This document shows, one piece after another, positions 391 to 64,000 of a DNA stretch of 64,000 nucleotides. Below the pieces are notes generated by a model, which worked only from the letters and a program-made list of their open reading frames with translations, was not told the DNA's origin and made no database searches. Positions within the stretch are counted from its first letter, which is position 1, and every line of letters begins with the position of its first letter. The translations under genes were made by a program, and so were the position numbers. The DNA is from Octopus vulgaris (lineage: Eukaryota), in NCBI GenBank assembly GCA_951406725.2, contig OX597815.1:79236001-79300000 (forward strand). The letters are read 5' to 3'.

Positions 391-1548
391 AGCTGATGTA
401 GACAAAAGTCGAAAAGAGATTAATCCTGAAGAACTAATGTCAAATCGGACACGTTCGGTGGTTGCAAACACACCCATTCAAAGTGGTTACGAATACCTTA
501 AATGAAATGTGCTGATGTTCTGGCAGATTCGAATGATGATAGAAGTTGTCATGTGTGGGCTGAATTCATCGCTGTCATCGTCGAATTCCGCAGCCGAACT
601 TGAGTGCCGTAAATTCCTACACAGTGTTCTTGGCTGTTTTACGGAAAATGGTGAACTAGCAGAAAAGCAAACTATATATAGCTACTGTCTGTTTCAGAAA
701 AGGAAGCCAAAGACAAAATTATTAATGACAATCCTATATGTTGTTTGTCCCAAAAAGTGATTGTTTACAACACCGGAATTTAATGAGTTAAGCATCAGCT
801 GGATCTGTTGATCTGATTGTTCAGTTTTTTGTTGATGTCATCAATCCTTAGCAACATCGTGTTATTTGTCCATGTGAATACATTGATTCAGGTTCGATTC
901 CCAAGCAGTGAGCTGCTGTTTGGTACTACCAAATAATCCTGCTACAAAGAGAAGTTATCATTTAGAAAAGTGCACCCGCACCAGCAAACGCTTTGTTGAG
1001 TGTTATAAAAGAATATGCAATAAAATAAAATAAAATTAAAAAAAAAAAAAAGATTAATAAGAAGCTTCCCTATTAACCGTAAAACGATCCAAACAAGACA
1101 TAAAAGCATATCTATTAGTGGCAGCAAAGCAGAGAGAAGAGGTAACAGGTGTTAATAGAGGAGGTAACCAGGGTTTGAGGGCGAATATGATTTAACGATA
1201 AAAGGCTATGCATAATATTTATGTTATTAACACTAACTTACAAAAGAAATTCTAATTTTTCAAATGTTATTGAAGCTAGTAGCTTTAATAATATACCGTA
1301 AATTCTGGGCTATAAGCCGCTACTTTTTCCCCACACTTTGAACATTGCGGCTAATACTATGGTGCGGCTAATGCATGTTCGTTTTTTTTTTGTCATGCCG
1401 CGAAAAACCTTTTGCCTCGCAACAGTAGACCAATCAAATTGATGAGTAGGTCAAAGAGGTCCAATGAAATTGTGCGATAAATCAAGAGCACTTTCACAAT
1501 CCAATTACCGGTATTGTAAAGCTGTCATTTGTATTCACCCTCATCAAC

Positions 1549-2824
1549 ATGGAAAACACTCGAAGAAAAGCATATGATGCAGCTTTTAAGTTGAAGGCAA
1601 TCAATCTGGTGGTTGAAGAAGGAAATCGAGCTGCTGCACGTAAACTTGGCATAAATGAATCGATGGTGAAACGGTGGAGACGCCAGCAGGAAGAACAAAA
1701 AGACGACGAAAGTTTTCAGAGGTAACCATAGTATATGACCCGAACTTGAAAACTTTCTTGAAGACAGGGAGAGCAAGCAGCTACGGTGTTTCCACTGTGC
1801 AGATCAGACTGAAGGCGAAAACAATCACCACCGAAATGAAAATCGAAGATATTAGAGGTGGGCCATCGTGGTGTTTTGTATTTATGAGAAGAAAATCTAG
1901 TCCGCCAAGCACGCACGACTTTGTGTCAGCAGCTCCCACCCCGTCTATGAGGAAAAACTTGTTAACTTTCGCACATTCACTCAAATAAAGATAGCGGAGA
2001 ATTCCATCGGACTAGAAAATATCATAAATACGGATGAAGTACCTTTGACGTTTGACCTGCCTCTCACTCGGACTGTTAATAAAAAAGGTGACTCGTCCTT
2101 CGCACTGAAAACAAGTGGTCACGAGAGAACGCATTTTACCTGTGTTCTAAGCTGCACAGCATCCAGACTAAAGCTTCCACCGATGGTGATTTTTAAGCGG
2201 CTGACAATGCCAAAGGATAAATTCTCAAAAGAAATCTTGCTGAAAGTCAATAAGAAAGATTGGATGATGGAGAACCTAATGAAGGATTAGCTTAGAGAGT
2301 GCTACGCCAAGCGACCTGGGGGATTTTTTCACACACACACAAAAAAAGCATTGGTCGTTATGGACAGCATGAGGGCCCATATAACAGATTCAGTGAAAGC
2401 TGCCATCAATAGTATAAACTCAATTCCAGCTGTGATTCCTGGGGGTACCACTAAGTATTTGCAGCCACTGGACATCAGCGTGAACCAGACATTTAAAGTG
2501 GCACTGCGCCGTGAGTGGGAGGATTGGATGATGAGCGGCGAGAAATCCTTCACTAAAACAGGCTGCATGTGAAAAGCATCTTTCACTCAAGTCTGCCAGT
2601 GGATCTTAAATGCGTGGAGCCGTGTCAAAACACCCACCACCACCAACAGGTTTCGAAAAGCTGGACTGCTGCGTGATGAAGAGGACCGGGTGCGCTCAAG
2701 TGAGAGTGACAATGAAGAGGCTGAAGTGAGTGACGAGATCCTGAAGCTGTTCAATTCGGACACTGAAGAAGAGGACTTTGATTATTTCCGTGCGCAGGAA
2801 GAAGATGAAGAAGGCGATCAATGA
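1549..2824 (+). pseudogene. POGK-like pogo transposase pseudogene (Brinker-type DBD, CENP-B HTH, DDE_1)
   Basis: MENTRRKAYDAAFKLKAINLVVEEGNRAAARKLGINESMVKRWRRQ; DEVPLTFDLP; TSGHERTHFTCVLSC...KLPPMVIFK; VMDSMRAH; IPGGTTKYLQPLDISVN; acidic tail; several stops and frameshifts. Confidence 0.9.
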
Positions 2825-7674: not shown

Positions 7675-8330
7675 CTTTATCTTTATCTTTATCTTTATCT
7701 AGTTTCAGCTCACAAGCTGTGGCCATGCTGGGGCACCGCCATTTGGTGTTGCTACATGATTTTACTTCACGAATGCTTTTTAGCAATTGCCATTTGGTGC
7801 ATGAGAGAGTTCGATGCAGCTGCCCTCATCTGCACCTCCTGCAGTGAAGTTGGTTCATCTGGGACACCTGACAGGAAGAGATCCAGTTTTATTTTAAAGA
7901 CATCTGCATCCACCCCATGCAAGTCTCTTAGGTTCTTCGCCAGGATATTGAAGAGCTGTGGGCCTCGGAAGCCCAGGCTATCACAGTATCTTGTCCTACA
8001 TCTTGATGGCAAATTTGGAGTCCTTGGCACTATGCAGTGGCGCCCAGTTCTGGCATTTGTGTAACTCTCGATGCCAAAGTTTGGGACAAGTCCTTCTAGG
8101 ATCTTCCAGATGTATATTATGGTATATCTTTCTCGCCTACGCTCTAAGGAATAGAGTCTCAATCTCTTGAGTCTTTCCCAATAGCTTATATGCTGCACAG
8201 AGGCTATCTTCGTGTAGCTTCGTTAGATCGCCTCAAGTTCTGTGATTAACTTGACACTGGATGGTGACCATAGCTGAGAGCAATAGTCAAAGTGGCTTAG
8301 GACAAGTGTCCTCCAGAGGACCATCATGAA
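7675..8330 (-). mobile_element. 5'-truncated LINE 3' end (CR1/L2/Jockey group)
   Basis: TLVLSHFDYCSQLWSP...SYWERLKRLRLYSLERRRERY...RGPQLFNIL...FKIKLDLFLSGVPDEP; 3' UTR GGCGGTGCCCCAGCATGGCC...GAAACTA followed by a (GATAAA)n tail. Confidence 0.9.
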
Positions 8331-10481: not shown

Positions 10482-11272
10482 TCACTGCCTCCCAAGACTC
10501 AAACCTCCATCAAAAGGAATGGTAGCACCGGTGAGAAAACTTGCTTTAGGAGAACATAAATATGAAATAAAATCTCCTATTTCTTCAGGTTGACCCCATC
10601 GACCCATCGGTGTTCTCTGGCAACCAACATCAGGACCCAAAATGCTTTCTCTCAGTTTCCAAGGTTTCGTTTGTATGTATCCAGGAACAATGCAATTACA
10701 AGAGATTCCCCTCTTTGCTAACATTTTAGCATAATGACGAGACAGATACTCAAGTACACATTTCCCTGTACCTGGCATCATATAACCTAGTCGAACATGG
10801 TCATTGATATTACAACCAGGGCTTGACAAGCAGACTATATAGCCATGACCATCTTCCATAAACTTCATTCCCGTTTCTACTAAACGTATGAAACACTTAG
10901 GATAGATATCTTGGTAGTAGTCGTAGTATTCAAAAGTACTAAAACAAGTATTCGGGTCCTTCGAAAAAGAATTTGGTTTAAAAAGTCCAGCAGTGTGAAC
11001 AATAGCAGTGAGCTTGCCGTTCATTTCATTCAAGCAGCTAAAATACGAATTCACAGTGCCTTCTTCACAAACATCTCCGCTAATCGTCCGAACTTCGATG
11101 TTGAAATCTGTCTCCAATTCCTGTAAGCATTTCTTGGCATTTTCACTGTCAGAAAGATAACCAAGAATTAAATTATAACCTTGAGAAGCAAGAGCTTTGG
11201 AAGTTGCAAAACCTATGCCACCTGTTCCTCCAGTAATTATGGCAATTTTTTGCCGGTCTTCATTATGGTTAC
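10482..11272 (-). CDS. Short-chain dehydrogenase/reductase, FabL/ChcA-like (enoyl-thioester reductase type); main and terminal coding exon
   Basis: Uninterrupted frame with the TGGTGGIG Rossmann motif, GDV, VHTAG, LSSPG, YMMPGTGK (Y-x6-K), NCIVPGYIQT, TPMGRWGQPEEIG and LTGATIPFDGG. Acceptor ttgtatttgtatattctag precedes 11272; AATAAA (tttatt on the plus strand, near 10358) lies downstream. The true start is uncertain. Confidence 0.92.
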
Positions 11273-11407
11273 CTAGAATATACAAATACAAAGAGAGTAT
11301 TAAAAGTTTATACGAACAAAACGACAAATGCAAACACACAGAAAGAAAACCTTCCTATGTTGTCTCACTCTACATAATATAGATAATGGCTAAATATATC
11401 AACGTAT

Positions 11408-25459: not shown

Positions 25460-25918
25460 ACAAAGTTTGGAAACCCCGCTTAATCACATGACGGCTACTA
25501 TACCGAAACTTCGAAAAGACTGCTACCCTTTTCCAAGTCAAAATAAAGCAAATCTGATACTCTATTGAAAGGTATTGAATGATCCTTCACTTTAATGCTT
25601 AAATGTTTTTTTTTTTATATATAAATGTATAACTATACATAAATACACATGCACACTTGCATACAGAACATCTAGGAAAGGTGCAAGAGTTGCGATCTCT
25701 GGAGGTTCTCCCAAACTGATAATATTGTTGCAAACAATGATCAATCCAAATAATAGCGTGGTATTGTCTGCAGGCAAAAGATGAGCAAAGAAGGAACAGT
25801 GTTTGGAATGAAAGCCTAGCAGCAGATCTAACTCTGTTAAAGGCAACAAAAGATCAAGTGGTGGTGTTAAACCAAATAATTGACTTATGTGATAAATATG
25901 CACTCATATGTGTACGTA

Positions 25919-27211
25919 CGAGGGGCGTTCAATAAGTAATGCCCCTGACCCACTTCCCATAGCAGTAGAGCAACGAAACTTGGCACAGTTATTAGTCTTT
26001 TTCTACATAGGAATCACCGAGAGTTACGCATTTCTCCCATCGTTTGATGCGGCTCTGGAGACCGTTTTTGTAGAAGAGCCCAGTTTGGTCCTCCAACCTC
26101 AACGTGACTTCAGAAATCAAGGCTGCAGCATCTGGGAAACGCTTTCCTTTCAAAAACAACTTCATGATTGGGAAGAGGTGAAAATCAGAGGGTGCAAGGT
26201 CAGGAAAGTAGGGGGATGGGGAGGAGTTCATAGTCATACGCCTGTGCTTCTGATCTGGCGACAAGCGAGTTATGGACCGGAGCGTTGTCCTGCAGGAGGA
26301 GGATGCCTTTGCTGATCTTGCCCCGCCTCTTGATTTTGATAACTTCTCTTAATTTCCTCAAAAGTGAAGCATAATAGGCTCCTGCAATTGTGGTACCCTT
26401 TGCCAGGAAATCTGTCATCACTACTCCGTCCTGGTCCCAGAAGACTGTGAGGATGACCTTGCCAGCGGAGGGCTGCACTCTTGCCTTCTTTGGAGGGGGT
26501 GAGTCACGGTGCTTCCACTGCATTGACTGGGCTTTGGTCTCTGGATCATCGTGATGGACCCAGGTTTCATCCTGTGTAATCAGTCTTTTGAAAAATTTTG
26601 ACTCATCTTCTTGGCAGATCTCCAAATTCACCCTCGAGCACTCGACGCGTTCTTGCTTCTGGAAAGGTGTGAGCAACCTGGGAATCCATCTGGCAGACAC
26701 CTTTTGCATATGCAAATGGTCATGAATGATAGTTTCCACAGACGACCCGGTAGTAATCTTGACCTCATGGGCTATTTGGCGAATAATTATGCGTCGATCT
26801 TCCAAAATGGCAGCCTCAACTTGACGGACAGATGCCTCATCAATGGCAGAAGGGGGCGACCAGATCTGGGAGCTGTTTCCACAGAGTTCCGACCATGTTT
26901 GAATTCACGATGCCAGCGTTTTACAAGGTCATATGATGGGGCATCAATACCATAAGTTACTTTCATTTCATCAAAAGTCTCCCGTGGTGTGCGTCTTTTC
27001 AAATACAAAAACCGGATCACTGCTCGACACTCAACAGGCTCCATTTCACACTTGACTCGGTTCAAACACCTGTAAATCAGAAACCACAATTAATTCAGAG
27101 CTGTAATTTGCCACTTACTCTATAGAGATATAGATGATTGCACATACAAAATTTCAGCAAGATCAAACAACTGCAAGTGGGTCAGAGACATTACTTATTG
27201 AACGTCCCTCG
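25919..27211 (-). mobile_element. mariner (DD34D) transposon, full-length copy 1
   Basis: TIRs CGAGGG(G/A)CGTTCAATAAGTAATG with TA flanks; transposase MEPVECRAVIRFLYLK...WIPRLL...TQDETW...QDNAPVH...PDLAPSDFHLF in three frames. Confidence 0.97.
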
Positions 27212-27387
27212 TACGAGTACATATATCCAGAAATATATATATCTATTTTAAAGATTTTTTTTCACGCGTAATCGCTTCAAATAAGTATACACAAAGGAAA
27301 TCTATTTATCGATCTGTGAACCAAACTACCTGCTAGCTACTTCCATACCTACTTAGCCAACTACATTTCTGTCTGTTTGTCTGTCTG

Positions 27388-34232: not shown

Positions 34233-35469
34233 ATGAGTTACGCCAAATTCCGGGAAAATGGAGAGTTCTCAGATATTACCATCTGGGTTGGTAACACAGA
34301 ATTTAAACTTCACAGATTTCCTTTGCTAACCAAGTCCGATTACATTTGCAAGCGTGTGAGGGAATTGTCTGAAGGAATTATTGGAAACGTTCTAAGTTTA
34401 GAACTGAAAGACTTCCCGGGTGGTTCAGATGTATTTGGTCTTATTGCAGATTTTTGTTATGGAATCAATATAAGTTTGATCGTCGATAATGTGGTTGAAC
34501 TTCGACTGGCAGCAGCTTACTTGGAGATGATGGGTACAGATAATTTAATCGAAATGACTGAAAAATTTATTGAAAATATGGTAATGTCTTCAAAGATTAG
34601 TCGGTCTGCTGACACTATCATTAAGCTTTTGCAGAACTGTTGCAACGTCAGGGAAATGGCCGAGGAAATAGGTTTGGTTGATAAATGCACGGATGCACTG
34701 GCGAGATGTTGGTCTACACCTCCGACAAGGTTCAGCAACCCCAATCGGAAGAAACTGATCGATGTATATGACAGTGGCGTTGTTGAACAGTTGTATGAAT
34801 TACCCATAGCTTGGATAATTAAAGTTATAGCATGTGCCAAAGAGAAAGGGGTCCAAAAAAACTGCTTGTCTGAGCTGATACTGTCACTGATGCGCCTTGG
34901 AATGGAGAACAGCTTTGTTGAAAAGGGAGATTTCGAGAATTTGAAGAAAAATGACGATCAATCAGGAAAACCACACATAGTTCGTGACTGCGATTTAATT
35001 AGAGACACTAAATATGTTAATTCCGAAGAAAACGAACCTGGACGTATCAAGCGTAGTACTATTGTGATGGCTACCATGTTGGAAGAACTACCCCCAGAAA
35101 CATTTGAAAATGATTTCTTTTCTGTAGATAATATTCTAACAATTTTGCCTGAAATAATTTCCTGTGAACCCCAGCAAAGACAAGCAGTTTTGAAAAAAGT
35201 GATTAGTCCACTTTTTAATCGGTTATCCTCAGGCGAAATATCCCTCATAAATCCAGATGTAATGTATGGAATTGTTACAAGTTCCTTTGCAGCAGATCCG
35301 TCGATGGTGAATGAACTTTGCAAAATTATCAATGTTTATGTGATCGAAAGATCACAAAGGAATAGTCTGAAGAAAGAAACATTTAAGATGTTGCTCACTT
35401 CCATTCCGCTTGTTCATCAACCCAACTCCGATAAGATTCTAGAGGTCTTGGAATGTCTGATCGATTCAG
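34233..35469 (+). CDS. BTB/POZ + NPH3-domain (NRL-like) protein, coding exon 1
   Basis: 1237-nt open exon with SDITIWVG.TEFKLHRFPLL.KS, DFPGG.DVF.LIADFCYG, NVVELRLAAAYLEM, AEEIGLVDKCTDALA and EQLYELPIAWIIKVIACAKEKGV; phase-1 donor TCAG|GTAAGA. Confidence 0.93.
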
Positions 35470-36211
35470 GTAAGATTACAGTTTTTAACAAAATTAATGC
35501 ATCAAAAAAAAAAAAAAAACTGCTATTCCTGGTCATTTAGACTTCGAGAAATAATAGAAACTAGTCATTTAACTTTGTGGACGTTGCATGATGTTGATGT
35601 ATGCCATTATTGTAGCAGTAAATTCTTTACGAGTTGAGTCAGTTTTGGCTCCTTGAAAAAATCGTTTCAGTTTGAATAGATATGAATGTTATAATACCGA
35701 ATCCTATTTTCTCTTCATCTATATTTAAGTTTATATCTTCTCTAAGAAAACATTCTTTTACAGGGGTACTCTTTATTTCTTCCCAACGAAACTTTTCAGA
35801 AATAGCTGATCAAAAAAGCATGTAATCAACCCTTCTTTGGCGGCACAGTCGATTACATCGATTTTATCTGGTCCCAACCCCATTACTTGAATAAGACCTT
35901 ATCCTATTGAGTTCATAATGATTATTGCAAACTCAGAATGTAAAAAATCATCAGTTACTACATATTGTCAGGCAATTTGTCCGACGTTCTACCAATTTTG
36001 CTTTTCACTGACCTCGCTAATAATTATGTTTTCGAAATGGTAGCCAAACCTCCCTCAAATATACACCTTGCTATCTTAAAGAAAGGACACTTGGAACAAT
36101 CTATTCTTGGGTTTCCTGGACAGAAAAAAAAAAGATGGTCATGGGTAGAATATATTTGATCATAAGTTACTCGCTTAGGACTGATGCGCGGTGAAATAAA
36201 AATAGCATGCA

Positions 36212-36296
<85 letters not shown>

Positions 36297-36299
36297 ATG

Positions 36300-36376
<77 letters not shown>

Positions 36377-36804
36377 CGTATCTGTCAAGACCTACCAAAA
36401 ACTGAGCAAATATAAAGATCTTGAAATAGAAATCAGCAAAATGTGGAACCTAAAGACTAAAACAATACCTGTTGTCATAGGTGCTCTGGAAATGATAGCG
36501 AAAGGGGCTGATTGCTACCTAACTCAGATACCAGGAAACCCCAAAATGGCAGAAATTCAAAAGATAGTGCTCATGGGAACTGCTCATATCCTACGCAAAA
36601 TACTCTCTATGTAACCTCAAGGTTTAAAACAGACAATTTTTTTAAAATTTATTTATTAGACATTCACTAGTACAACGCCCCCAAAAAGCCCAAATATATG
36701 GCACACTAGGCATAACAACAACGTGAACTTCCAACCTGTTGTCTCTTGAGGTCTCTGGGTGAGACTTGGAGCCAACTTGTACAAACATAAAGCAAAAGTC
36801 AAAC

Positions 36805-36901
<97 letters not shown>

Positions 36902-37053
36902 TATAATAATAACAATAATTAATAATAATAATAATAATAAATAATAATAATAATAATAATAATAAATAATAATAATAATAATAATAAATAATAATAATAA
37001 TATTAATAATAATAATAATAATATTAATAATAATAATAATAATAATAAAAATA

Positions 37054-37115
<62 letters not shown>

Positions 37116-37140
37116 ATGATAATAATAATAATAATAATAA

Positions 37141-37196
<56 letters not shown>

Positions 37197-37268
37197 TAAA
37201 TAATAATAATAATAATAATAATTAATAATAATAATAATAATAATAACAATAATAATAATAACAATAAC

Positions 37269-37303
<35 letters not shown>

Positions 37304-37475
37304 TAACAATAACAATAATAATAATAACAATAACAATAACAATAACAATAACAATAACAACAACAACAACAATAATAATAATAATAATAATAACAATAAT
37401 AATAATAACAATAACAATAACAATAACAATAACAATAACAATAACAATAACAATAATAATAATAATTATAATTAT
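36212..37475. repeat. Large (ACT)n/(AAT)n/(AAC)n trinucleotide field
   Basis: Directly visible; interrupted by a LINE fragment. Confidence 0.97.
36377..36806 (+). mobile_element. R4/Dong-clade non-LTR retrotransposon 3' end (restriction-like endonuclease)
   Basis: KLSKYKDLEIEISKMWNLKTKTIPVVIGALE...IQKIVLMGTAHILRKILSM*, then a 3' UTR; both junctions lie in (TAA)n. Confidence 0.85.
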
Positions 37476-37479
37476 TTCT

Positions 37480-38480
37480 GATAGAGGTACAAGGCCTAAC
37501 ATTTGTGAGAGGAGGTTAGTCGATTACATCGACTGCGGTATTTGACTGGTATTTTACTTTATCGACCTGCAAATGATGAAAGGCAAAGTTAACTTAGACG
37601 TGAGTTGAACTCAGCACATAAAAGAGCGGGGACAAACATCACAAAGCAAATTTTCGTCCGACGCTTAAACAATTCCGCAAATTAATCACCCAGGGGTTAA
37701 TCGATACCATCGATTCCAGTACTTGGCTGTTATTTTATTTTATCAACCCATGATGATGAACTCTGAGTGTAAAGAATCGGAAGTAATGCTGCAAGGAATT
37801 TAAACTGGATGGAAAGCTACAAGGAATCTATTCCAACGCTCTAACGATTTTGACGGTTCGCCACTTGTAACAGTTTTTAATTTAGGCACAAGACCAGCAA
37901 TTTTGAAAGGAGGGATTAGTTGATTAAATTGACTCTAGTACTTGACTGGAACTTTTATTTTATAGACTCCGGAGGGAGGAAAGTCAAGGTTGACTCTGAC
38001 ACGATTAGAACTCAGTGCATAAAGGTTTGGCTGAAATTCCCCGAGGCATACTGTCTGACGCTCTAATAATGCTTGCCAGCTAGCCGCCTTTATAATCATA
38101 GCTTCAAATTTAAGCTCAATGCCAACAGTTTTGAGTGATAGATGTTTCAATTAGGGTTAGGGCTAGGGGTTATCTAATTAACTATACCCTCTCGCTAAAG
38201 TTGTGCCAATGTTAGAAACAATTATGGGTTTGAGAACTTGCTCAAAGGGTGTTTATTGAGATTAAGATTACTGGCACCTGAGGACTGGCAGAGTCATTAA
38301 AACGTCGGTCAAAACGTTTTGCACTATTTGCTCTGAGTTCAAGTTCCATCAAAGTTAGCTTTGCATAGGGTAGGTCAAATATTGGGATCGAATTAATCGG
38401 CAAACCCTTTCTCCAAATTCCGGGCTCTGTGCCTTTGTTAAAAGCAATTACTTGAAGATGAGAGACAAAGTAGACCTCGG
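37480..38480. mobile_element. Cluster of degenerate SINE core fragments
   Basis: Repeated ACAAGGCC...GATTACATCGAC...GACTGGTA...TATCGAC...GAAAGGCAAAGT...GAACTCAG modules, also seen near 4590, 6580, 32160, 49260 and 59200. Confidence 0.65.
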
Positions 38481-38761
38481 TGGGATTCAAAGTCGAACAA
38501 GAAAATGCGTAGCAAAATATCGCAATGTATTCAATCTATTGCTCCACCGATTCTACCTATGATTTTTAACTTTAGTATTAAGCCACAAAGTTGAATGGGA
38601 GGACTGTAGTCAATTAATCGATCGCGGTGCGAGTGTCATTTAAGTCTGAAAAAAAAAACCCCATTAAAAGATGTAGTAATCATACACCTATGCACTGAAT
38701 AAGTTTGGGACTGACATTGTCTTTAATCACACCCATGTTGACAAAATATATTAGTGATTTT

Positions 38762-38838
<77 letters not shown>

Positions 38839-39330
38839 GAGAAAGAGAGAGAGAGAGAGAGCCTTGAATTATTAAACGTCTTGGATTAGCAGAAATGTTA
38901 GATTGTTGAAGTTAAAATCCAGCTAATATCAACTTCTTTCATTCTTTCGAGATCGATAAAATAAATTACTAGTCAAATACTGAGTTGATTTAATGATTTA
39001 ATCAATTATACTATAATACCATCAAACTAAAAGCCTTGTGTCAATGCTAGAAATCAATATTATAGCTGAAGATGAGGTGAAGAAACGACAGAGAGGGTAG
39101 TTCGTTATGTTTTTATATTTATTTTATCGATAAGAAAAATACACACAAAACGAAAATAAAGTCAAGAACTTGATGCTTAATGCGATGCCATTTGGACAAG
39201 GAAATATCAGAACCGATTTTCTCCGAAGTGAATCATGTGGAGGATGCTTTGCCAAAATGCATAACGCAAACTGATATAATGTAAAATTGCTACATTTTTT
39301 CGCTTACTTGTCTACAGTATTGTTTATCTA

Positions 39331-40618
39331 CGAGGGGCGTTCAATAAGTAATGCCCCTGACCCACTTCCCATAGCAGTAGAGCAACGAAACTTGGTACAG
39401 TTATTAGTCTTTTTCTACATAGGAACCACCCAGAGTTACGCATTTCTCCCATTGCTTGATGCAGCTCTGGAGACCGTTTTTGTAGAAGACCCCAGCTTGG
39501 TCCTCCAACCTGAACGTGACTTCAGAAATCAAGGCTGCATCATCTGGGAAACGCTTTCCTTTCAAAAATAACTTCATGACTGGGAAGAGGTGAAAATCAG
39601 AGGGTGCAAGGTCAGGAAAGTAGGGGGATGGGGGAGGAGTTCATAGCCATACGCCTGTGCTTCTGATCTGGCGACAAGCGAGTTGTGGACCGGAGCGTTG
39701 TCCTGCAGGAGGAGGATGCCTTTGCTGATCTTGCCCCGCCTCTTGATTTTGATAACTTCTCTTAATTTCCTCAAAAGTGAAGCATAATAGGCTCCTGCAA
39801 TTGTGGTACCCTTTGCCAGGAAATCTGTCATCACTACTCCGTCCTGGTCCCAGAAGACTGTGAGCATGACCTTGCCAGCGGAGGGCTGCACCCTTGCCTT
39901 CTTTGGAAGGGGTGAGTCACGGTGCTTCCACTGCATTGACTGGTCTTTGGTCTCTGGATCATCGTAATGGACCCAGGTTTCATCCTGTGTAATCAGTCTT
40001 TTGAAAAATTTTGACTCATCTTCTTGGCACATCTCCAAATTCACCCTCGAGCACTCAACGCGTTCTTGCTTCCGGAAAGGCGTGAGCAACCTGGGAATCC
40101 ATCTGGCAGACACCTTTTGAATATGCAAATGGTCATGAATGATAGTTTCCACAGACCCGGTACTAATCTTGACCTAATGGGCTATTTGGCGAATAATTAT
40201 GCGTCGATCTTCCAAAATGGCAGCCTCAACTTGACGGACAGATGCCTCATCAATGGCAGAAGGGGCGACCAGATCTGGGAGCTGTTTCCACAGAGTTCCG
40301 ACCATGTTTGAATTCACGATGCCAGCGTTTTACAAGGTCATATGATGGGGCATCATCACCATAAGTTACTTTCATTTCATCAAAAGTCTCCCGTGGTGTG
40401 CGTCCTTTCAAATACAAAAACCGGATCACTGCTCGACACTCAACAGGCTCCATTTCACACTTGACTCGGTTCAAACACCTGTAAATCAGAAACCACAATT
40501 AGTTCAGAGCTGTAATTTGCCACTTACTATAGAGATATAAATGATTGCACATGCAAAATTTCAGCTAGATCAAACAACTGCAAGTGGGTCAGAGGCATTA
40601 CTTATTGAACGTCCCTCG
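39331..40618 (-). mobile_element. mariner transposon, full-length copy 2 (intronic)
   Basis: Same TIRs with TA flanks; nearly identical to 25919-27211; one nonsense codon (CAT TAG near 40175) and homopolymer frameshifts. Confidence 0.97.
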
Positions 40619-40944
40619 TACATAGTGATTTTTGTCATAACAACTTAGGCAAACACGGGTAAGTGTATCCTTCGCTAAGACCGAAACAGGTCTCAAGTTA
40701 CTGTCGTACTTGCCAAAAATGGTAATGAAATATTAGTTTTCGAGATAATGCCATTTCTTCATCGTCTGAGTATTTCCAGTTAAATTTTGTTAGTGATGCA
40801 AGTTACGAATTAATCTGACACAACGTTGTCATGTCAATAAAACTCAGAAGTTAGATTTTTTTTTTTGCTATGTTCACAATAACTGATTTCTTTCGTTCAT
40901 TTGCAAGGTTCTGTGATATGTTAAAAATTATGATGAGGAATATA

Positions 40945-41096
40945 ATGGTGTGTGGTAAAGAGCATGCTTCTCAACCACATGATTCTTGAGTCAGTTCCAT
41001 TACGTGGCACCTTGGACAAATGTCTTCTACTATAGCTTCGGGCCGACCAAAGCCTTGTGAGTGGATTAGATAGACGGAAACTGAAAGAAGCCTGTC

Positions 41097-41100
<4 letters not shown>
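40945..41100 (-). mobile_element. SINE 5' half
   Basis: Head of the 14122 family up to the (TA)n tract. It reads in the same orientation as that copy on the plus strand, so the strand call is uncertain. Confidence 0.6.
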
Positions 41101-41143
<43 letters not shown>

Positions 41144-42337
41144 TTTCTGTTCAAATACATCCATGAAAGACACTGGAACACCACTACTTTTCTTTTCTCC
41201 TAAATAAAAGATTTTGAGCATATGTCAGTAATCATTGCGTACCAGTGACTGTGAGGCGTGCTGCAAGCTTGGGGGTATTAATTTAAACCCTACTTCCCAT
41301 TAAAAACGATGGTAATGTATAGAGTAAGAATATTTAATGTCAATGTAACAGGCTTAACATTTTGTATTGATTAGAGCGTAATAGATGAGGGTTAGTGATG
41401 TATCTACAGGCAGGCATTAAATCATTTCCATAAAAAGCAACAATAAAGTACAGAAGAAAATATTTATGTTGGGTAACTAGGTGATTAGGTTTAATGTGTT
41501 GTATAGATTAGAGCCCAAAAGTTAGGCCATAGTGTAGTATCTATAGATAAAGGAATTCAGGGATTAGTAATGTTTACATATGTTACACAGGACACTCATA
41601 TTTGTCACATACATACAGACAATTTATCAAAGTCACTTCAAGTAGGCAAATGCTGTCAACAGGTGGACAGAGGGTGATTGAAATTACTAATATTTTGAAA
41701 TAAATAAGTAAAAACGAAGATTTATTTAACACCCACCATGATGATGTTGTATAGAATACGTATTACAATGAAGGCCAAAGATCTATAGAATAATTGAATT
41801 AGCAGTTTCTAGCCTCGTTATTGTATGCGGTTGCTCTGCTTACGATATTCTAGGTTATGGAGACACTTTTATTTCAGCCATGCCTTAATTTCTAAACGTG
41901 AAAGAGTTAGAATTCTCTTCGTCACTCGACCTGAGTGTCTGTACATATTGATCATATCTGATCTTAAAAGTATATCCCGTAAGTCGTGTATAAATTCTAT
42001 CGATGCCGTAGGCATTTGATAATGCTATTATGCAGAACCTGTATTACAACAGAAAAGAAATTCCTCGCAGAAAAACTTAAATGGGAAATGAAAAAGATAC
42101 ATTTCTGTCTACAGCACGAGACCGTTACGGACAAGTGCATTTTAAGTCCAAAGATACAATAGTCGTTAGAAAGCTTTGACGCCTTAATCAGCGAGTTATA
42201 GGATATTTATACAAAGCTGGCGACGTTGCTTCTATATCTTCAGTCAAGAATGACAAAAAACAAATAAGATTCTCTGATTAGACTTTCTTATATCATACTT
42301 TCATGCCCATAGCTAATATCCACTGTTAATATTAATT

Positions 42338-43770
42338 TCACTTAAACAAAATACAATAGCCTAGGAAATGACAAGTAATTCCAATGTATAAAAAAAACTT
42401 GGTGGGGCTCAATGACTTCAAGGTGTTTTTTAAAAGTTCGAGGTTAGCCATTTTGGATCTAAAGATGGATTCGATAGCTAGGTCAGTAATTGGGTCTCCA
42501 AGGGAACACCTCACTGATGAAGGAGGAATCGCGATTGAGGGGAGGGAGTCAACAAATAGTTTAGTAGTCTGCTCATGCAAAGCTGGGTGGTTGAGGAGCC
42601 AGAGCTTGCAGTTGGAGCTGTTAACGCTAAGACCTCTATGACCAAGTTCCTCGATCATCGTCCTAGCAGTTGTAAGCACCTTGTCAGGAAGGCCTCCCAA
42701 ACAAACATCATTGAGGTGCCAGACATTTAGATCTAGGTCGGTTCCCATCTTGGTAACATCATCAATAGCCAATGCGAATAGGGCAGGACCAAGTGGATCA
42801 CCCTGTTGGACTCCAGAGGCAGATGGGATGAGGTGGTCACTAAACGAGAAGAAGGAGGGCTCCTGATAGGCTTGCCAAACGAAGTGATAAAATGGTGGGG
42901 AATTCTCCCTTACTGTGTGGTGAGTGATGGAGTTAAAAGCATTCTTAAGGTTAAGTTTGAGGATGACCTTTGGGGACTCAGAGGCCAAGTTGGTGAAAGC
43001 CCTGGTGGAATGAGTGACAACCTCACAATCTAGCTTAGTACCTATTCCTAGCTGCACAGGGGAAAATTCCTCGGTCAGGCAGTTTGAAACTGAGGACAGG
43101 CACACTCTTGTTGTGAGCCGTCGCAGAGAACAACCAACTGCTTTGGGGCGGAGGTCACCGTTGGGCTTGGTGAGACCAAATAGTTTGGCCCCAAAGAACA
43201 GGGGACGAATGTAAGCAAGAACACTCTCGGACGAGAACAAGTTTATGAACTGTGTTAGGTTCTCCAAGAGTTCGAGTCCAGCATCACCAGCTGACAAGGA
43301 GATACCATCCTTGAGATGCTGAGGTCGTAAGCCATCGATCCCAGCGCCAGAACCTACTGGAAAAGAGGCAATTGCTTTCTTGACATTGTCAGGGGTGAAG
43401 ATGGGTTGTAGAAAACTTAATGGGTAGGGCCAGTGTAGACAATCACCTGGAGTGGACGGAGGATGTTTCTCCTTCAGTTGGTTGAGGGAGTCTGTGGTAT
43501 ACGCGACGAGAGAGGACAGAGAGGAAAGAGAGGAAAGAAGGCGAACAGCCCCATTTAATGTCAAATGCGCTGAATTTGGGCGTCAACAGCCTTCTTTAAG
43601 TTACGTTGTTGACCATTGTTCGGGGTTGACCTGAGATGAACAGTTGTTGAGGTAGATTCGAACAACTCGAATTGCTGTTTCAGGGAAGAAGTGAGGGATC
43701 CACTATTCCCATTCGTTACGTGGAGGGAGTCCAAAGGGAACAGGAACATATTTTTCCAAGGGTCTTATAA
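42338..43770 (-). mobile_element. CRE-clade non-LTR retrotransposon RT fragment
   Basis: 408-aa ORF with SGAGIDGLRPQHLKD, LTKPNGDLRPKAVG..LRRL, QLGIG, KLNLKNAFNS, GVQQGDPLGPALFAL and WHLND; catalytic Asp residues are changed to Asn. Confidence 0.85.
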
Positions 43771-45942
43771 TAGAACTTTAACAAGTGATATACGTATCTC
43801 AATCTGAGATACAGAAACACTTAGTTTTCAATATAGATCCGATATGGATTGTGACTAAATATTTGAGCCTCTAATCTGAAGCTAAGTATCAAAACAGAAT
43901 CTCCCCTTGTGTCACCCCGTCATTAATTAGAAACAACAACTCACTGCGATAACGATATTATAAACAAACTTTTCAACCTTTAGCTACTATAATCACTTAA
44001 ATCATCTGAGCTCTGAATTTAGAGGATTTTAAGAATTAAGCCATGTTTGTTTTTTTGCCATAATATCCCTAATCAGCTTTGCAATTGTAAATTTATTTAG
44101 CTTGACACTTCGGACACGAGGCAGGGATTTTTACTGATAACTTTTCTACTTGTTGAAGCAATCGATATGTCAACGTATGCACTTGTGATAATATTTACAA
44201 TGTTGTTGGGAATTGAGTGAGGTGTGGATTTTTTCCTAGCTTTTAAATAAACTGTTTATTCGATCTTTCTAACACATTATTTAAAATAAACCTTTCGATC
44301 TTTCTAACACATATACACCCAACAATTACTTTTGAATGGGTGTAAGCTGAGATTTTTTCTTGTAAAGAGAATGTTAGTCAATGGAATAAATCCAAACACA
44401 TCATATATTTATTAACTTACAGAGACAAATTTAGTTGAGTTGAGATTTTGAACCTAAAAGAAGGAGTTGAGTCAAATGCCATAAAAGACCAGGTCGGTGG
44501 AGTTCTTAGACTTTAAAAGGATGTGTGTTCTTTCAGTTTTACAAAGCCTGTACTTCCTTGACCCATTAATGTGTGGCGTAGATCTCTCACCGATGTTCCA
44601 CTCGATGCTGTGTGGTGGGTATTTTTGGCCTTCAATACACCGATGTAGCTAGCTAGCTTAGTGTCTGTCTTCTTGCCTACGTGTCAGAAAAAAGACTGAT
44701 GGTCGGCGTATCTTTTTCTTTTCCACATTGTCCGATACATTTTTCCTTTCAGTTTCTTATTTGGCAGAAAAGAGCTGACCTCGGTTTCGTATACAATTGA
44801 ACTAACCATGCAAGCCTGAATAGTTTTTTTCAGGAGGAGAAATGAAGAATTGCAATATGTCTATAACACAGAACCTGTCTACATGACAGATTAGTTGAAC
44901 AAGACCAGGATATAAGTTCCATTCAAAATATTTCATATTACCAATATCTAAGCCTCATATTTAACGATTTCAAATCCTACCGCGGTCAACTGTGTTTTCA
45001 TTCAATAGTATCTGGTGAGAAAATACAAACTAATAAGGATCTTCCCTATTTCCTCATCCCTAAATTTCATAGTCATCATTTTAGCGAAGGAAGTCGCTAA
45101 TGAAGATATCACCACTTTAACGACTGCACTGCGTCATTAATTCAATGGCTGTATTATTCCTCTGCTGCAGTAAGTGAACAACTTCGTATCCAATGTTTTA
45201 TTCAGATGCGTAATAAACGAATTCGTACTGTGAGTACACAATGTTCAATCAGGTTATCTGGGATTGACGTTAAAGATTCTGAATATCTTGCCATATTCTA
45301 CGATGACAGTGAAAAAATTGGAGGAATTCAAACTACAAAAATTACTTCCAGACAGGCACTAGGTGAAGAATACCATAGGGAGTTGCTGATGAGAGAATAT
45401 CGAATCATTATGCTTGGCTCTCTCTCTCTCTCTCTGATGTTGACCTCGCCGCGTCTTAGAGAAGAAGCGATTCAATTGGAATACGCTCTTAAGAAGTAGA
45501 CGATATTGCTCCGAACATCCTCCTGTGTGAGGTTTAGCAGTTATGGCTTGTATAGCAAAAGGGGAACTAAACACTGTTGCTTGGAACGCTCTAGAACATT
45601 CGACAGGGAAGATAACTGCAGTTGAATCCCAGCTAATATTTTGCGAGCGAAACGAACCTGTTTCACATAGCATTGCCTACATCATCATCACCATCATCAT
45701 CTTCTTCTTCTTCTTCTTCTTCTTCTTCTTCTTCTTCTTCTTCTTCTTCTTCTTCTTCTTCTTCTTCTTCTTCTTCTTCTTCCTCCTCCTCCTCCTCCTT
45801 CCCTTTTGCGTCTTTCTTCTTCCTCCTTTTCCCCCCTTAATCATTCTTCTCCTTATTTCTCTTTATATTCTCCAAAGTCTTCTTCAGACTTCCCTTCCCC
45901 TCACCGTTTCCTTTCTTCTCACTTTCTCTCTTCTCTTTCCAG

Positions 45943-46209
45943 AACAAGGGATGCCTAAAGAGGAACGCACGTCGCTTATCAAATCAGTTGACTGGAGTGC
46001 CTTCAGTGAAGAAGCATTAGAAAAATCTTTGGACAAAAGCATCATTCCCTCAAAGTACATTGCTAGAGCTGCAGTTAACCTATGTAAAAGACTTCGGCAG
46101 ACTTTTGAACACCTTGAGAAAAGCAGAAAGGCTGAAAACGACAGAGTTCTGGTAACCAGCGCAAATGGTTCGTTTATTGCCGGGGATTATTTAAGGGTCC
46201 AGTCATCAG
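45943..46209 (+). CDS. NRL-like protein, coding exon 2
   Basis: Long polypyrimidine tract plus CCAG acceptor; donor TCAG|GTAAGT; phase 1 to 1; EQGMPKEERTSLIKSVDWSAFSEEALEKSLDKSIIP matches the end of the NPH3 domain (L...ER..LC..MDCQKLS.EA..HA..N..LP). Confidence 0.9.
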
Positions 46210-46263
46210 GTAAGTAAAATGTGTATGTATGAAGGTTAAAGTGTGTAATGTATACGAGAACGG

Positions 46264-46301
<38 letters not shown>

Positions 46302-46699
46302 CAGTCACAGACAAACACACAGAAGAAGAGAGAGAAAAAGGACGGGAGAGAGAAAGAAAAGGAAAGAGAAATGTCAAGAAAGGAAGAAAAGAGTTAGTAG
46401 GAACAGGGAAACCCAAATTAAGTTGATACATGAGGAAATACTGCAACTATTCTAGCAGAAATGATCGGTGAGCATCGCAGACGACACGAAGAATCTAAAA
46501 GCTATTCTCTTGACATTTACAGTCCACAGATATTCTCTCTCCATCTCATCAAGCGTTTTAGTATGTATTTATGTAAACTTCATTTCCTTCTGGGAATGCG
46601 ACTTTTGACTCGAGTCATGTCGAAGAGATCCATATTTATTTTTTAGAAGCTTGGCACTATGAATCGAAAAATAAAGGAGCTTCTTGGCAGTCTTTTGGC

Positions 46700-48200
46700 C
46701 AGGTCGAAATAATAGCCAGATTTCTTCCAAATCTTTTAAGTGGGTGAAATTGTTTTGCTAATTTTTAAAAATTTGAAATTTGGATAAACACTTCAAGAGC
46801 GCACCCCCACCCGATTATTCGTCCTCATGGAGCAAGGTAAGTGGTCGTCCCCACTTTTTTCTCAACGTAGCCCGTCGCTGATGCAAAGAGTTAGTTCCAT
46901 GTGGCCTGGAACCGGCTTGGAATTCAAATCACTAGTTTAATGATCAGTAGATATAGATGTTGATAGCCGTCAGTGAAACTAAGAAGTAATGAAAGAGAAC
47001 AATAGATTGGAGGAGGAGAGAATGTAGACCGTTTAGAAGAGGCTGTTAGAAAAAGCGTCGCAATCGATGTGCTTGTTACTGAATTATCACTCGATCATTT
47101 CATTAACATGAAACATGAAAGCTGCGTTATTGGAGTAAAGATACATGTTCTTAGATACATGAGGGCGAAAACCGTTGGATAAATCCGGCAGACTCTACCC
47201 ATATGGGAAAAAATTCAGTCTTTCACAGACAACAATGGATGTCAGACAGGTGAGTGTAGTTTATTTAGTGACACTTCGCGACTGTTTTAGGGAAGCGATT
47301 GAACGAAGAAGGTGAACTTAGTGCCTACCTTGATGGTTGTCACGAGTTGGAGTATTGAGAAAAGTCGATATCAGCCACTAGAATTCGTGATGTGTGATAC
47401 CTAATATCTCAGCAGATGTCCATTGCAACTGGCCGCGATCGAGGTGAATTCCCCAAAAATATAGAGCGGTGAGTGGTAGAGCTACCGAGGAAGGACGTCA
47501 ACAAGAAAGACATCGTTGAAGATTTTTAATCTATCACTCGGCTGAATGCAAAGTTAAATATTTTATCCGTCATCGACACCACTCATAATAGTGATTCCTG
47601 CGGATCCATTCCATTTGTAACTCAAGCTACACATTAGTAGAGAAGGTTGGTGATAGATCTGTCTTGTGTAGGGTTGTGATAAATTAAGGTCATTCTAAAG
47701 CTTTCGACTGGGTCACCATTACACTTGTAGGTCCAGGATAAATTCTATAGGCACGTCCGGAGTGATGAAATCTTTCTACATGCACTCGTTATGTGTCTGA
47801 GCATTGTTGAGTTGTGGAGTTATGTCGGATAACTGTTGTCACGTGTCATCCATCATCAAGATCGCTTTACCATCTTTTGTGATGAGTACAAGGAAGGAAA
47901 TGTTGTTTCCTCTCTAATATCTATAGTGAAAATGCTTGTGTGAAGGACAAAACCGAGAGGTCTGACGACAAGAGCCTTCGTCTCCAGTCAAGTTCTCATC
48001 AACGTTTTCGAGTACCACAAAGAGAAATGTGAAGTTGGTGTAAAGGGTCGTCCTTACTTACTAAAATGTTGAGAGGGTAGCAAGTGAAACCTAGATGATT
48101 GGGGCTTCTGCTCTCAGTAGGCTGGAGTCTACGACTGAGAAAAAGAGAGAATTTGTCCTTGGAAGTCAGAGTAATCCTGAATCTGTAAAATTTCATGGTT
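46700..48200 (-). mobile_element. Very old LINE remnant (ORF1 zinc knuckle / APE region)
   Basis: Only scattered motif traces and a more balanced GC content; no ORF. Confidence 0.3.
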
Positions 48201-48357
48201 GGTCATAGATATATGCTTCTCTAGTGGAGTTTTTCCTTTTCATGTGCATGCTTATATTATTTTCTCATGCCTGTTTTTTTTTTCAAACTGGTTGTAACCC
48301 CATCATAGAAATTTGTGCTCAATCCTTGTAATTCCCGCTCATCGATCTCGTGGCGAA

Positions 48358-48424
<67 letters not shown>

Positions 48425-48717
48425 TTACTACTACTACTACTACTAGTTCGTGTTCGCATCTACTGTTACTGCACTTACCACTCCTTACATTAAATTTTTT
48501 AGCATGGAAACCAATAATCATTAATCATTTCAACACTTGGAAGATGAAAAAACAAAATGTAGGTCGAACAATCAATCCTGCAGTAATTTTATATTCTAGT
48601 TTTCACCACCTGTACGTCGTCATATTGTCGGTTGCAGATCAAAATTATTCTTAGAAATAACGTTGAACATAGAAATAGTCATGCGTTTTAAATCTTAAAT
48701 TTAATATAATTTTCCAG

Positions 48718-49022
48718 ATCGAACACGTGAAGAAGAACTTCAAGCTGAAGCAAATGATTCAGAAGAAGAACTTTCGAATGTCAATCACATGAATACAAAT
48801 CTAATTTTGAGTACTGATCCCTTGGAAACAACCGGATCTCATGTTTTGCCCAGCAACTACACGTTTCGAGCTCTTAATTTCGACGAGTCCAGCTTAGATG
48901 AGGATTTCAGTGTCAAATATGATGATCTGAATATCAGGGACCTTGACCACAGACTGAAGATACAAGCTCCAACCTCAAACTATAGTTTCAAACCATACAA
49001 CTATTATGTTAAACCGTACTGA
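48718..49022 (+). CDS. NRL-like protein, terminal coding exon 3
   Basis: TTTTCCAG acceptor; phase 1 gives DRTREEELQAEANDSEEELS..., in frame with the ORF ending ...KPYNYYVKPY*; AATAAA at 49071. Confidence 0.8.
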
Positions 49023-50121
49023 TTAATAATGTCCTCTGTTTGAAAATGTTCGACACATATTCGATTTTTGAATAAATACGCACTATGATTAAAATGAAAA
49101 GATTATTTCTGTATCACCAACGTCAAGGTTAAATTCGTAGATATTTGCAGTAATTTCTTACAGTAAATAATAAAAGAAAACATATTGAAATAACGTGTGT
49201 AGTATTCTTTCAATCTAAGAAATTTATTACGTTGATTTGTTTACTTATTCTTCATACATTCTTCAAATTCCGCCGAAGACGACTATGTCTTTCATCCTTT
49301 CGGAGTCGATTAAATAAGTACCAGTTACGCACTGGGGTCGATGTAATCGAATATCCCCCTCCTCCACAATTTCAGGCCTTGTGCCTACAGTAGAAAGGAT
49401 TCTTAATACGTTCTAATAGACTGAAACGCAAATACGCTAGTTGCTGCTGTGTACGTCAAAGGAGAACAACTTTTCACTTTGACGACGGCAGTATGTTCAT
49501 AAAACACGTGGCTTATTCGTAAAAGGGATTCTGGGACACCTAGAACTGATAGGACAGAGCGCAAAGTATCTTGTTTGCCACATATACCAGACCTCATCAT
49601 CACTAAGGATTTCTCCGGACGAATACTCCTCTTCATAGAGTAGCAAAAACTAGCCTTTCTACTCAGAACCAGAAAACAGTTTAGTCCTCAACAACTACGA
49701 ACACTCAGTTAATATGCAGTTTAGGGATTTAAAAAAAAATGGAGGTAAATTGACTGGGAGCGACGACGGTTGCATCCCATAATTTCATTAAGAGAACATA
49801 AAGAGAACTTATGAAATCCCTTACTTATATTATCAGAAGTCGTTCATTAGGTGGCGTCCACAGGTAACTACATGTGAAGTGCTTCCACGTGATAGCTTCT
49901 GAAATTGCAGCCGAGGTACACTAAGGTACTATATCAACAACGAACACTACTGTAAAGGCAATTCGGTGGCTTGTATGTCAACGCATGATGGCCAATATAG
50001 TTACATCTGAGCAATGCAGTAATCCTGCACGACTGCGGAGCTGTAAAGAAAGAATCGACGGGAAGCAGTGGCGTTGTTCTTATCGATTCATGTTATATAC
50101 ATTGATAATATTACATAAATT

Positions 50122-63591: not shown

Positions 63592-64000
63592 ATGTCTTTT
63601 ACAAAGAAAAAGAGATATGATGAGTCATATTTGAACTTCAGTTTCACTGTGCTTACTGGTGGTAGAATAGAAAAACCACAGAGTGTTCTATGCTCTTAGG
63701 TATTGGCAGCGTCTTCACTGAAGCCCAGCAGGCTAAAGAGGCATTTGGAAACAAAACATTCCAGTGCAGTCAACAAAGACGAGGAACTTTTCAGATCCCA
63801 AGCTGACAGATTGGTCAAATCCAAACTCGATGACACAGGGATGTGTATGCAGGACGTTGTAGCTGGTCTGAAAGCCTCATACGAGGTTTCAAGGAAAATT
63901 GCTGCTACAAAAAAACCTCATAACATTGGAGGGCATTTAATTCTTCCTTACTGCAAAAATATAATCTTACTTGTGCTTGGAATGTCTGAACTATAGAAGC
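63592..64000 (+). pseudogene. hAT (Charlie/Buster; ZBED5/FAM200-like) transposase N-terminus, disabled, running off the window
   Basis: KKRYDESYLNFSF...KPQSVLCS*VLA..SLKPSRLKRHLETKH...ASYEVSRKIAATKKPHNIGGHLILP; in-frame TAGs; probable left end of the element near 61044 (TTCTCAAACTGGGGTCTGCGGACCCC). Confidence 0.88.

Follow-up and report, generated by a model that had tools for sequence, protein, structure and literature searches.

Sequence comparisons place an intact, spliced octopus gene in an overlooked animal branch of the NRL (BTB-NPH3) family

Gene structure and splicing

We analyzed a window of 64,000 nucleotides of Octopus vulgaris DNA (GenBank assembly GCA_951406725.2, contig OX597815.1, positions 79,236,001 to 79,300,000 of the forward strand; coordinates below count from the first base of this window) that contains a gene for a protein related to the NPH3/RPT2-like (NRL) proteins of plants. 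The gene lies on a chromosome-scale contig and consists of three exons separated by two phase-1 GT-AG introns, and translation of the joined exons yields 602 amino acids with a single terminal stop, as the first-pass annotation of the window had proposed from the DNA. This product is identical, letter for letter, to the database protein P0004, the source names of which are 'phototropism 2-like [Octopus vulgaris]' and 'BTB/POZ domain-containing protein At1g30440-like [Octopus sinensis]'. The gene and the domains that it encodes are laid out as follows:

34233..35469, + strand: exon 1, Met1 to Ser412 plus one base; BTB domain, helical extension and most of the NPH3 domain
34245..34571, + strand: BTB domain of the NRL type, residues 5-113 (Pfam E 2.6e-8, tree and model), without the N-terminal beta extension
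34611..34715, + strand: three-helix extension after the BTB domain, residues 127-161, corresponding to the alpha6-alpha8 extension of plant NRLs
34773..46049, + strand: NPH3 domain, residues about 181-448, interrupted by intron 1; low-confidence loop at about 241-269
35470..45942, + strand: intron 1, phase 1, GT-AG, 10,473 nt
45943..46209, + strand: exon 2
46210..48717, + strand: intron 2, phase 1, GT-AG, 2,508 nt
48718..49022, + strand: exon 3; predicted disordered acidic tail, Tyr-rich tip and stop codon
49023..49174, + strand: 3' untranslated region; contig ends at 49103-49164, poly(A)-signal-like hexamers at 49071, 49088 and 49169

Splicing was followed in contigs from sequencing runs X1, X5, X9, X10 and X15, which are guessed to be RNA, none being on record as such. 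Intron 1 is removed in four of four runs (X1, X5, X9 and X10, from four studies), the contig departing at position 35469 and running on into the initial 30 bases of exon 2. Intron 2 appears as a 2,508-nt skip with GT..AG ends in three of the four runs that cover exons 2 and 3 (X1, X5 and X9) and is retained, unspliced, in the fourth (X15). Because both introns are precisely excised in contigs from three studies, we conclude that a spliced transcript exists, with the junctions that the first-pass annotation had drawn. The three spliced runs also carry A instead of G at position 46055, a synonymous change at the third position of codon 450 (Lys) that is probably an allele. A protein search of the octopus genome matched this locus only, with three matches corresponding to the three exons, so that the gene is present in a single copy. 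A six-frame PF03000 search of the same genome gave no match and missed this gene itself, which makes it uninformative on paralogs.

Domain assignment

Pfam searches with the full-length protein detected a BTB domain (PF00651) followed by an NPH3 domain (PF03000, 27.4 bits with a cut-off of 27) and gave no match to BACK (PF07707); exon 1 alone reached just 16.4 bits for NPH3. Among the 52 aligned non-plant members of the family, NPH3 was found at E<=0.01 in 33 and BACK in one. The profile of the animal family matched that of plant NRLs at 100% over 412 columns, and, with the BTB domain removed, at 99.8% over 304 columns, compared with 3.5% for a profile of 20 ordinary octopus BTB reading frames with BACK. 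The BTB part by itself scored 236 against the plant NRL BTB and 129 against the BTB of octopus BTB-BACK proteins. Furthermore, a hidden Markov model (HMM) of the region downstream of the plant BTB gave 64.7 bits on residues 113-480 of P0004, with shuffled sequences at 3.7 bits or less (159 reported of 200), and the BACK HMM gave 1.5 bits on the octopus protein. Across all 17 named animal members tested, the plant HMM scored 18.7-95.2 bits and the BACK HMM at most 3.2 bits. The Atlas feature score to plant NRL clusters was 0.96. The similarity beyond a generic BTB domain that had been recognized in the first-pass annotation is thus borne out, the profile matches outside the BTB being to plant NRLs and not to BACK.

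Two features of these comparisons temper the assignment. The NPH3 score of the octopus protein is barely above the Pfam cut-off, and those of the Argonauta protein (26.8) and of two sponge-type proteins (24.0 and 22.6) fall below it. In addition, the plant rows had been selected among the matches of the animal profile, a choice that favors profile matches and of which the Pfam and Atlas results are independent. Collectively, the octopus gene is almost certainly an intact, spliced member of the NRL (BTB-NPH3) family and, as judged by sequence comparison, is homologous to plant NRLs along the BTB domain and the whole NPH3 domain.

Predicted structure and sequence motifs

AlphaFold models of the octopus protein (predicted local distance difference test score, pLDDT, 78) and of the Striga protein P0010 (83) were compared by eye, and the 18 helices that follow the BTB domain come in the same order in both. 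The octopus protein is predicted to consist of a BTB domain and an all-helical superhelix that corresponds helix for helix to that of the plant model, after which a long terminal helix leads into a disordered tail; the N-terminal strands of the plant protein are missing from its model. A search of PDB sequences recovered no solved NRL structure, the matches being BTB domains or weak, short ones. The alpha6-alpha8 extension has been described after the BTB domain of plant NRLs (10.1101/2024.06.17.598829), and the octopus helices 127-137, 140-146 and 148-161 align with helices 134-147, 150-153 and 156-168 of the plant model. A confident helix of the octopus model, at residues 449-486, occupies the place of the plant LIP motif and coiled coil; its heptads are weak, with a hydrophobic fraction of 0.55 at positions a and d in the best frame.

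Searches for similar folds linked the octopus model to vaccinia A55 (template modeling score, TM, by target 0.69 over 223 columns) and KLHL11 (0.52), and the plant model to KLHL11 (0.58 by target), the KLHL11 alignments of the animal and plant models extending over about 300-330 columns. Going by these models, there may be a distant structural kinship between the NPH3 domain and BACK; the profiles show no such link. Like the animal BTB-BACK(-Kelch) adaptors of CUL3 (KLHL11, KBTBD2, KBTBD4) and vaccinia A55, the octopus protein has a BTB domain followed by a helical superhelix, with weak fold matches over 220-330 columns; unlike them, it has no BACK or Kelch domain by sequence, and its BTB domain falls in a separate clade. 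The hydrophobic-x-Glu motif in the alpha3-beta4 loop of BTB domains serves in CUL3 binding. This motif is absent from P0004, whereas Glu occupies the respective column in 15 of 21 ordinary octopus BTB domains. A Met-x-Asp version of the loop was seen by eye in the sponge, coral and hemichordate rows, so that the sponge NRLs share a CUL3-loop-like motif with the adaptors; the octopus protein and most of the spiralian members shown are without it.

With the plant NRLs (NPH3, RPT2, NCH1, NPY/MAB4, NPT/SIB), the octopus protein shares the NRL-type BTB domain, the three-helix extension, the colinear NPH3 domain, a helix after a conserved Pro and a disordered tail, and 57 positions across the family have the same top residue in animals and plants. 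Polar residues common to the two families map to octopus positions 367 (Asp), 369, 396 (Arg), 400, 429 and 434, and the octopus protein deviates at two of these, with Asn367 and Gln396. It differs from plant NRLs in the missing N-terminal beta extension and in its C terminus, where a Tyr-rich tip stands in place of RxSxS. The terminal RxSxS, a 14-3-3 motif, was found in one of 43 non-plant rows and in 30 of 64 plant-labeled full-length rows; as it is missing from roughly half of the plant rows, it is not a defining feature of the family. Over the last 15 residues, the share of Tyr is 10% in the 43 non-plant rows as opposed to 0.4% in the 64 plant rows, and the octopus tail is acidic (21 D/E and 10 K/R). 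The first-pass annotation had described both the absence of RxSxS and the acidic, Tyr-rich tail correctly. Its claim that the plant tyrosine motif is absent applies to the octopus protein and not to the family. A Tyr that is typically conserved toward the end of the NPH3 domain has a functional role and lies outside the domain definition; it is present in 63 of 63 plant-labeled rows and replaced by Leu403 in octopus, whereas the 68 non-plant rows with a residue at this column include 11 with Tyr, 31 with Phe and 12 with Leu, that is, Tyr or Phe in 42.

Distribution among animals

The NRL family has been called plant-specific (Stogios 2005; PMC11313873; 10.1101/2024.06.17.598829; 10.64898/2026.08.17.745151), with NPH3 placed at the origin of plants (PMC4327156) and the NPY/NRL proteins dated to the ancestor of land plants (PMC8774072). 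Word-indexed homolog searches with the octopus protein gave just 7-8 proteins, and it was a HMMER scan with the family profile that revealed the family, with 1,494 representatives at E<=0.001, of which the best 150 were listed. Sorting of 157 rows by eye separated 66 plant-like sequences, among which the Striga protein alone was checked by name, from 91 others. Of 20 non-plant clusters looked up, 15 carry species names, and all of these are animals. Together with Octopus and Argonauta, the named relatives come from Haliotis, Physella, Littorina, Bulinus, Tubulanus, Ptychodera, Owenia, Adineta, Macrostomum, Oscarella (two), Corticium, Paralvinella, Dendronephthya and Schistosoma, which by our taxonomy represent eight phyla: Porifera, Cnidaria, Hemichordata, Mollusca, Annelida, Nemertea, Platyhelminthes and Rotifera. 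In an Atlas cluster that consists mostly of Rotifera, 60% of the 81 members have NPH3. On this sequence evidence, the octopus gene is not an oddity of its host but belongs to an overlooked animal NRL branch that extends from sponges to acorn worms. The label 'plant-specific', repeated in the first-pass annotation, reflects the literature faithfully but does not hold for the family itself.

No vertebrate, arthropod, nematode or protist is among the names looked up, which cover 20 of the 91 non-plant rows and come from the best 150 of the 1,494 matches, so that absence from these groups is not implied. Stogios 2005 gives BTB-NPH3 proteins as confined to Arabidopsis among 17 genomes, which fits loss in model animals. 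Pattern scans located no relatives in prokaryote genomes and, with pattern A4, none in viral contigs; pattern A3 counted one viral stretch, for which no locus was given. A full-text literature search returned no paper on animal NRLs, supplementary domain tables, which could list animal NPH3 matches, being outside its scope. As far as searched, the animal NRLs thus form a previously undescribed branch of a known family, although automatic database names already call these proteins NRL-like.

Some lineages show peculiarities of their own. Corticium candelabrum has several paralogs (P0009, P0028-P0030, P0037 and P0054), some of them truncated, for which the longest contig is of one and the same length (9,047,904); they likely reflect a tandem expansion in this sponge. 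Seven sequences (P0112, P0114, P0123, P0129, P0142, P0157 and P0175) form a clade near the rotifer sequence, fail to align in the last part of the NPH3 domain and may represent a diverged or truncated expansion. In two metagenome relatives (L044 and L045), the BTB region lies in several pieces, suggestive of extra introns.

Descent and origin

In a family tree of 40 rows and 380 columns, the cephalopods group with the gastropods (Shimodaira-Hasegawa-like approximate likelihood ratio test, SH-aLRT, 82), the flatworms with one another (94) and the sponges with one another (99), and the branch between animals and plants has a support of 100. The positions of the coral, hemichordate and nemertean sequences are odd, and the rotifer has no settled place. 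A candidate phase-1 donor is present at the site of octopus intron 1 in four of seven metagenome loci, one codon later in two and nowhere in the remaining one. The read-through products from the clusters of Haliotis and Paralvinella are likewise interrupted at the intron 1 site; none of the plant rows ends there, so that they say nothing on an intron shared with plants. The grouping with molluscs and the intron 1 site in relatives fit vertical descent within animals.

A recent horizontal transfer from plants to cephalopods, or plant contamination, would agree with the description of the family as plant-specific. However, the octopus gene groups with those of other molluscs, on the far side of a fully supported animal-plant branch; relatives occur in eight animal phyla; the locus is on a chromosome-scale contig; and its introns hold host repeats, as the first-pass annotation had stressed in arguing against contamination. 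The elements in intron 1 are as follows:

39321..40624, - strand: mariner with 43-bp inverted ends and an interrupted transposase
40947..41138, strand not assigned: SINE-like (short interspersed nuclear element) host repeat, with copies elsewhere in the window and at five genome loci (L005, L015, L017, L022 and L026)
42338..43582, - strand: reverse-transcriptase fragment (PF00078, E 8.3e-10)

One placement of the animal sequences inside plants was also rejected under a mixture model (p 0.035), though not under LG+G4 (p 0.23). Recent transfer or contamination is therefore extremely improbable. Hardly more credible is the possibility that the protein is a divergent, ordinary BTB-BACK protein with a convergent likeness to NPH3. 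The fold matches to BTB-BACK proteins speak for such convergence, as do the Atlas structure rows 5-9 of the relative P0175, which are kelch-like proteins (TM 0.32-0.37) below a plant NRL cluster in the top row (TM 0.42); yet the plant model matches the same BTB-BACK folds, the BACK profile and HMM barely respond to the animal proteins, and the BTB domains of animal and plant NRLs form one clade apart from other octopus BTB domains, with supports of 100/99 and 100/100 in two BTB trees.

These BTB trees, which were built from about 120 columns with octopus BTBs as the outgroup (animal sequences only, neither plant nor protist) and for which the mixture-model set was thinned from 81 to 54 rows, also bear on the deeper origin of the family. 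In both, plant NRLs are sister to the eumetazoan members with the sponges outside (97/91 under LG+G4 and 99/99 under the mixture model), and in both the monophyly of animals is not rejected (approximately unbiased test, p-AU 0.47 and 0.35). We regard an ancient shared origin of animal and plant NRLs followed by many losses as a proposition with an even chance of being right. A transfer between stem lineages in the plant-to-animal direction, or through a third party, appears possible but less probable, and a transfer from the animal side to plants is rather unlikely. In the latter scenario, which we rate just as low in its full form, the family would have arisen in the animal stem from a BTB-BACK-like protein, with sponges keeping the most ancestral BTB domain, and an ancient horizontal transfer from the side of the eumetazoans would have carried it to plants; if so, plants later built phototropism, auxin-carrier polarity and chloroplast movement on animal-derived NRLs. 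Of the two origins offered in the first-pass annotation, 'ancient and patchily retained' fits the pattern within animals, whereas recent acquisition by the octopus lineage does not.

Possible function

The partners of plant NRLs, phototropin, PIN and SOSEKI, are plant proteins. Plant NRLs have been described as scaffolds of polar membrane domains (10.64898/2026.08.17.745151; 10.64898/2026.08.17.745269) and as trimers held together by the LIP motif and coiled coil (10.1101/2024.06.17.598829); binding of RABs and VAMP721 and GTPase activity have also been reported for them (PMC11313873). By analogy, the octopus protein, as a representative of the old animal NRL branch, would most plausibly be a self-associating scaffold of the cell cortex that organizes membrane-protein trafficking or polarity, an explanation that we consider about evenly poised as a whole. 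The mechanism, in which such a cortical scaffold would be tied to trafficking machinery common to both kingdoms, falls slightly short of that. In the octopus protein, the terminal helix would play the oligomerizing part that the LIP motif and coiled coil have in NPH3; trafficking proteins that are present in animals, namely, RAB GTPases and R-SNAREs, would be bound by the NPH3 domain; and the Tyr-rich tip would replace the 14-3-3 switch of plants as a regulated targeting element. Several observations count against this proposal. Its functional part is carried over from plant work, the architecture being what is shown for the animal members, and the partners named above are proteins of plants. 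The terminal helix of the octopus protein is short, with weak heptads, and the sequence at the LIP place is unlike the plant motif; moreover, no amphipathic basic membrane helix was identified in the octopus protein, the tail of which is acidic.

The first-pass annotation had favored a ubiquitin-ligase adaptor, in which the BTB domain and helical extension would bind CUL3 while the NPH3 domain or the tail selects substrates for ubiquitination. The weak alignment of both models with BTB-BACK CUL3 adaptors, the Met-x-Asp loop kept in sponge, coral and hemichordate members and the description of CRL3-NPH3 in a review speak for this role. However, the octopus protein is without the usual CUL3 motif, which weakens the adaptor reading, and so are most of the spiralian members shown. 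Long-form BTB domains dimerize using an N-terminal strand, and the octopus protein begins at the end of helix alpha1, without this strand. The evidence from plants is mixed, a preprint (10.1101/2024.06.17.598829) reporting that CUL3 was not detected among the partners of NPH3. For the octopus protein, we accordingly find the adaptor role doubtful and do not maintain it as the assignment. Still less probable, although compatible with the scaffold, is an atypical GTPase in which the NPH3 domain would hydrolyze GTP as a trafficking switch. The activity has been reported for NRL5, six other NRLs and NPH3, that is, for eight Arabidopsis NRLs, and the polar residues shared by the animal and plant families would be suitable candidates; but the report is a single paper (PMC11313873), the catalytic residues of NRLs are not known, and octopus has Asn and Gln in place of the common Asp and Arg.

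Whichever role applies, an animal branch reaching from sponges to hemichordates removes the premise that the family is confined to plants and moves its origin back, through deep shared ancestry or cross-kingdom transfer. The residues kept in both kingdoms make a short list for mutation that bears on the open question of what the NPH3 domain does. The octopus genome has one NRL gene as opposed to 33 in Arabidopsis (10.64898/2026.08.17.745151), and single-copy genes in tractable animals such as flatworms, annelids and molluscs allow knock-downs free of that redundancy.

Other features of the window

The mariner of intron 1 has a second copy 13 kb away, at 25909-27214; the two are 96.6% alike, and both have 43-bp inverted ends and interrupted transposases. 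Fragments of a pogo-like DDE_1 transposase (E 0.0024) and two more transposon-like frames without Pfam hits lie at 1468-2824 (+), 7767-8222 (-) and 63700-63996 (+). Finally, an open frame of 290 amino acids at 10482-11354 (-), its start undefined, encodes a short-chain dehydrogenase/reductase (adh_short_C2, E 4.6e-37) with the entire domain in one exon.

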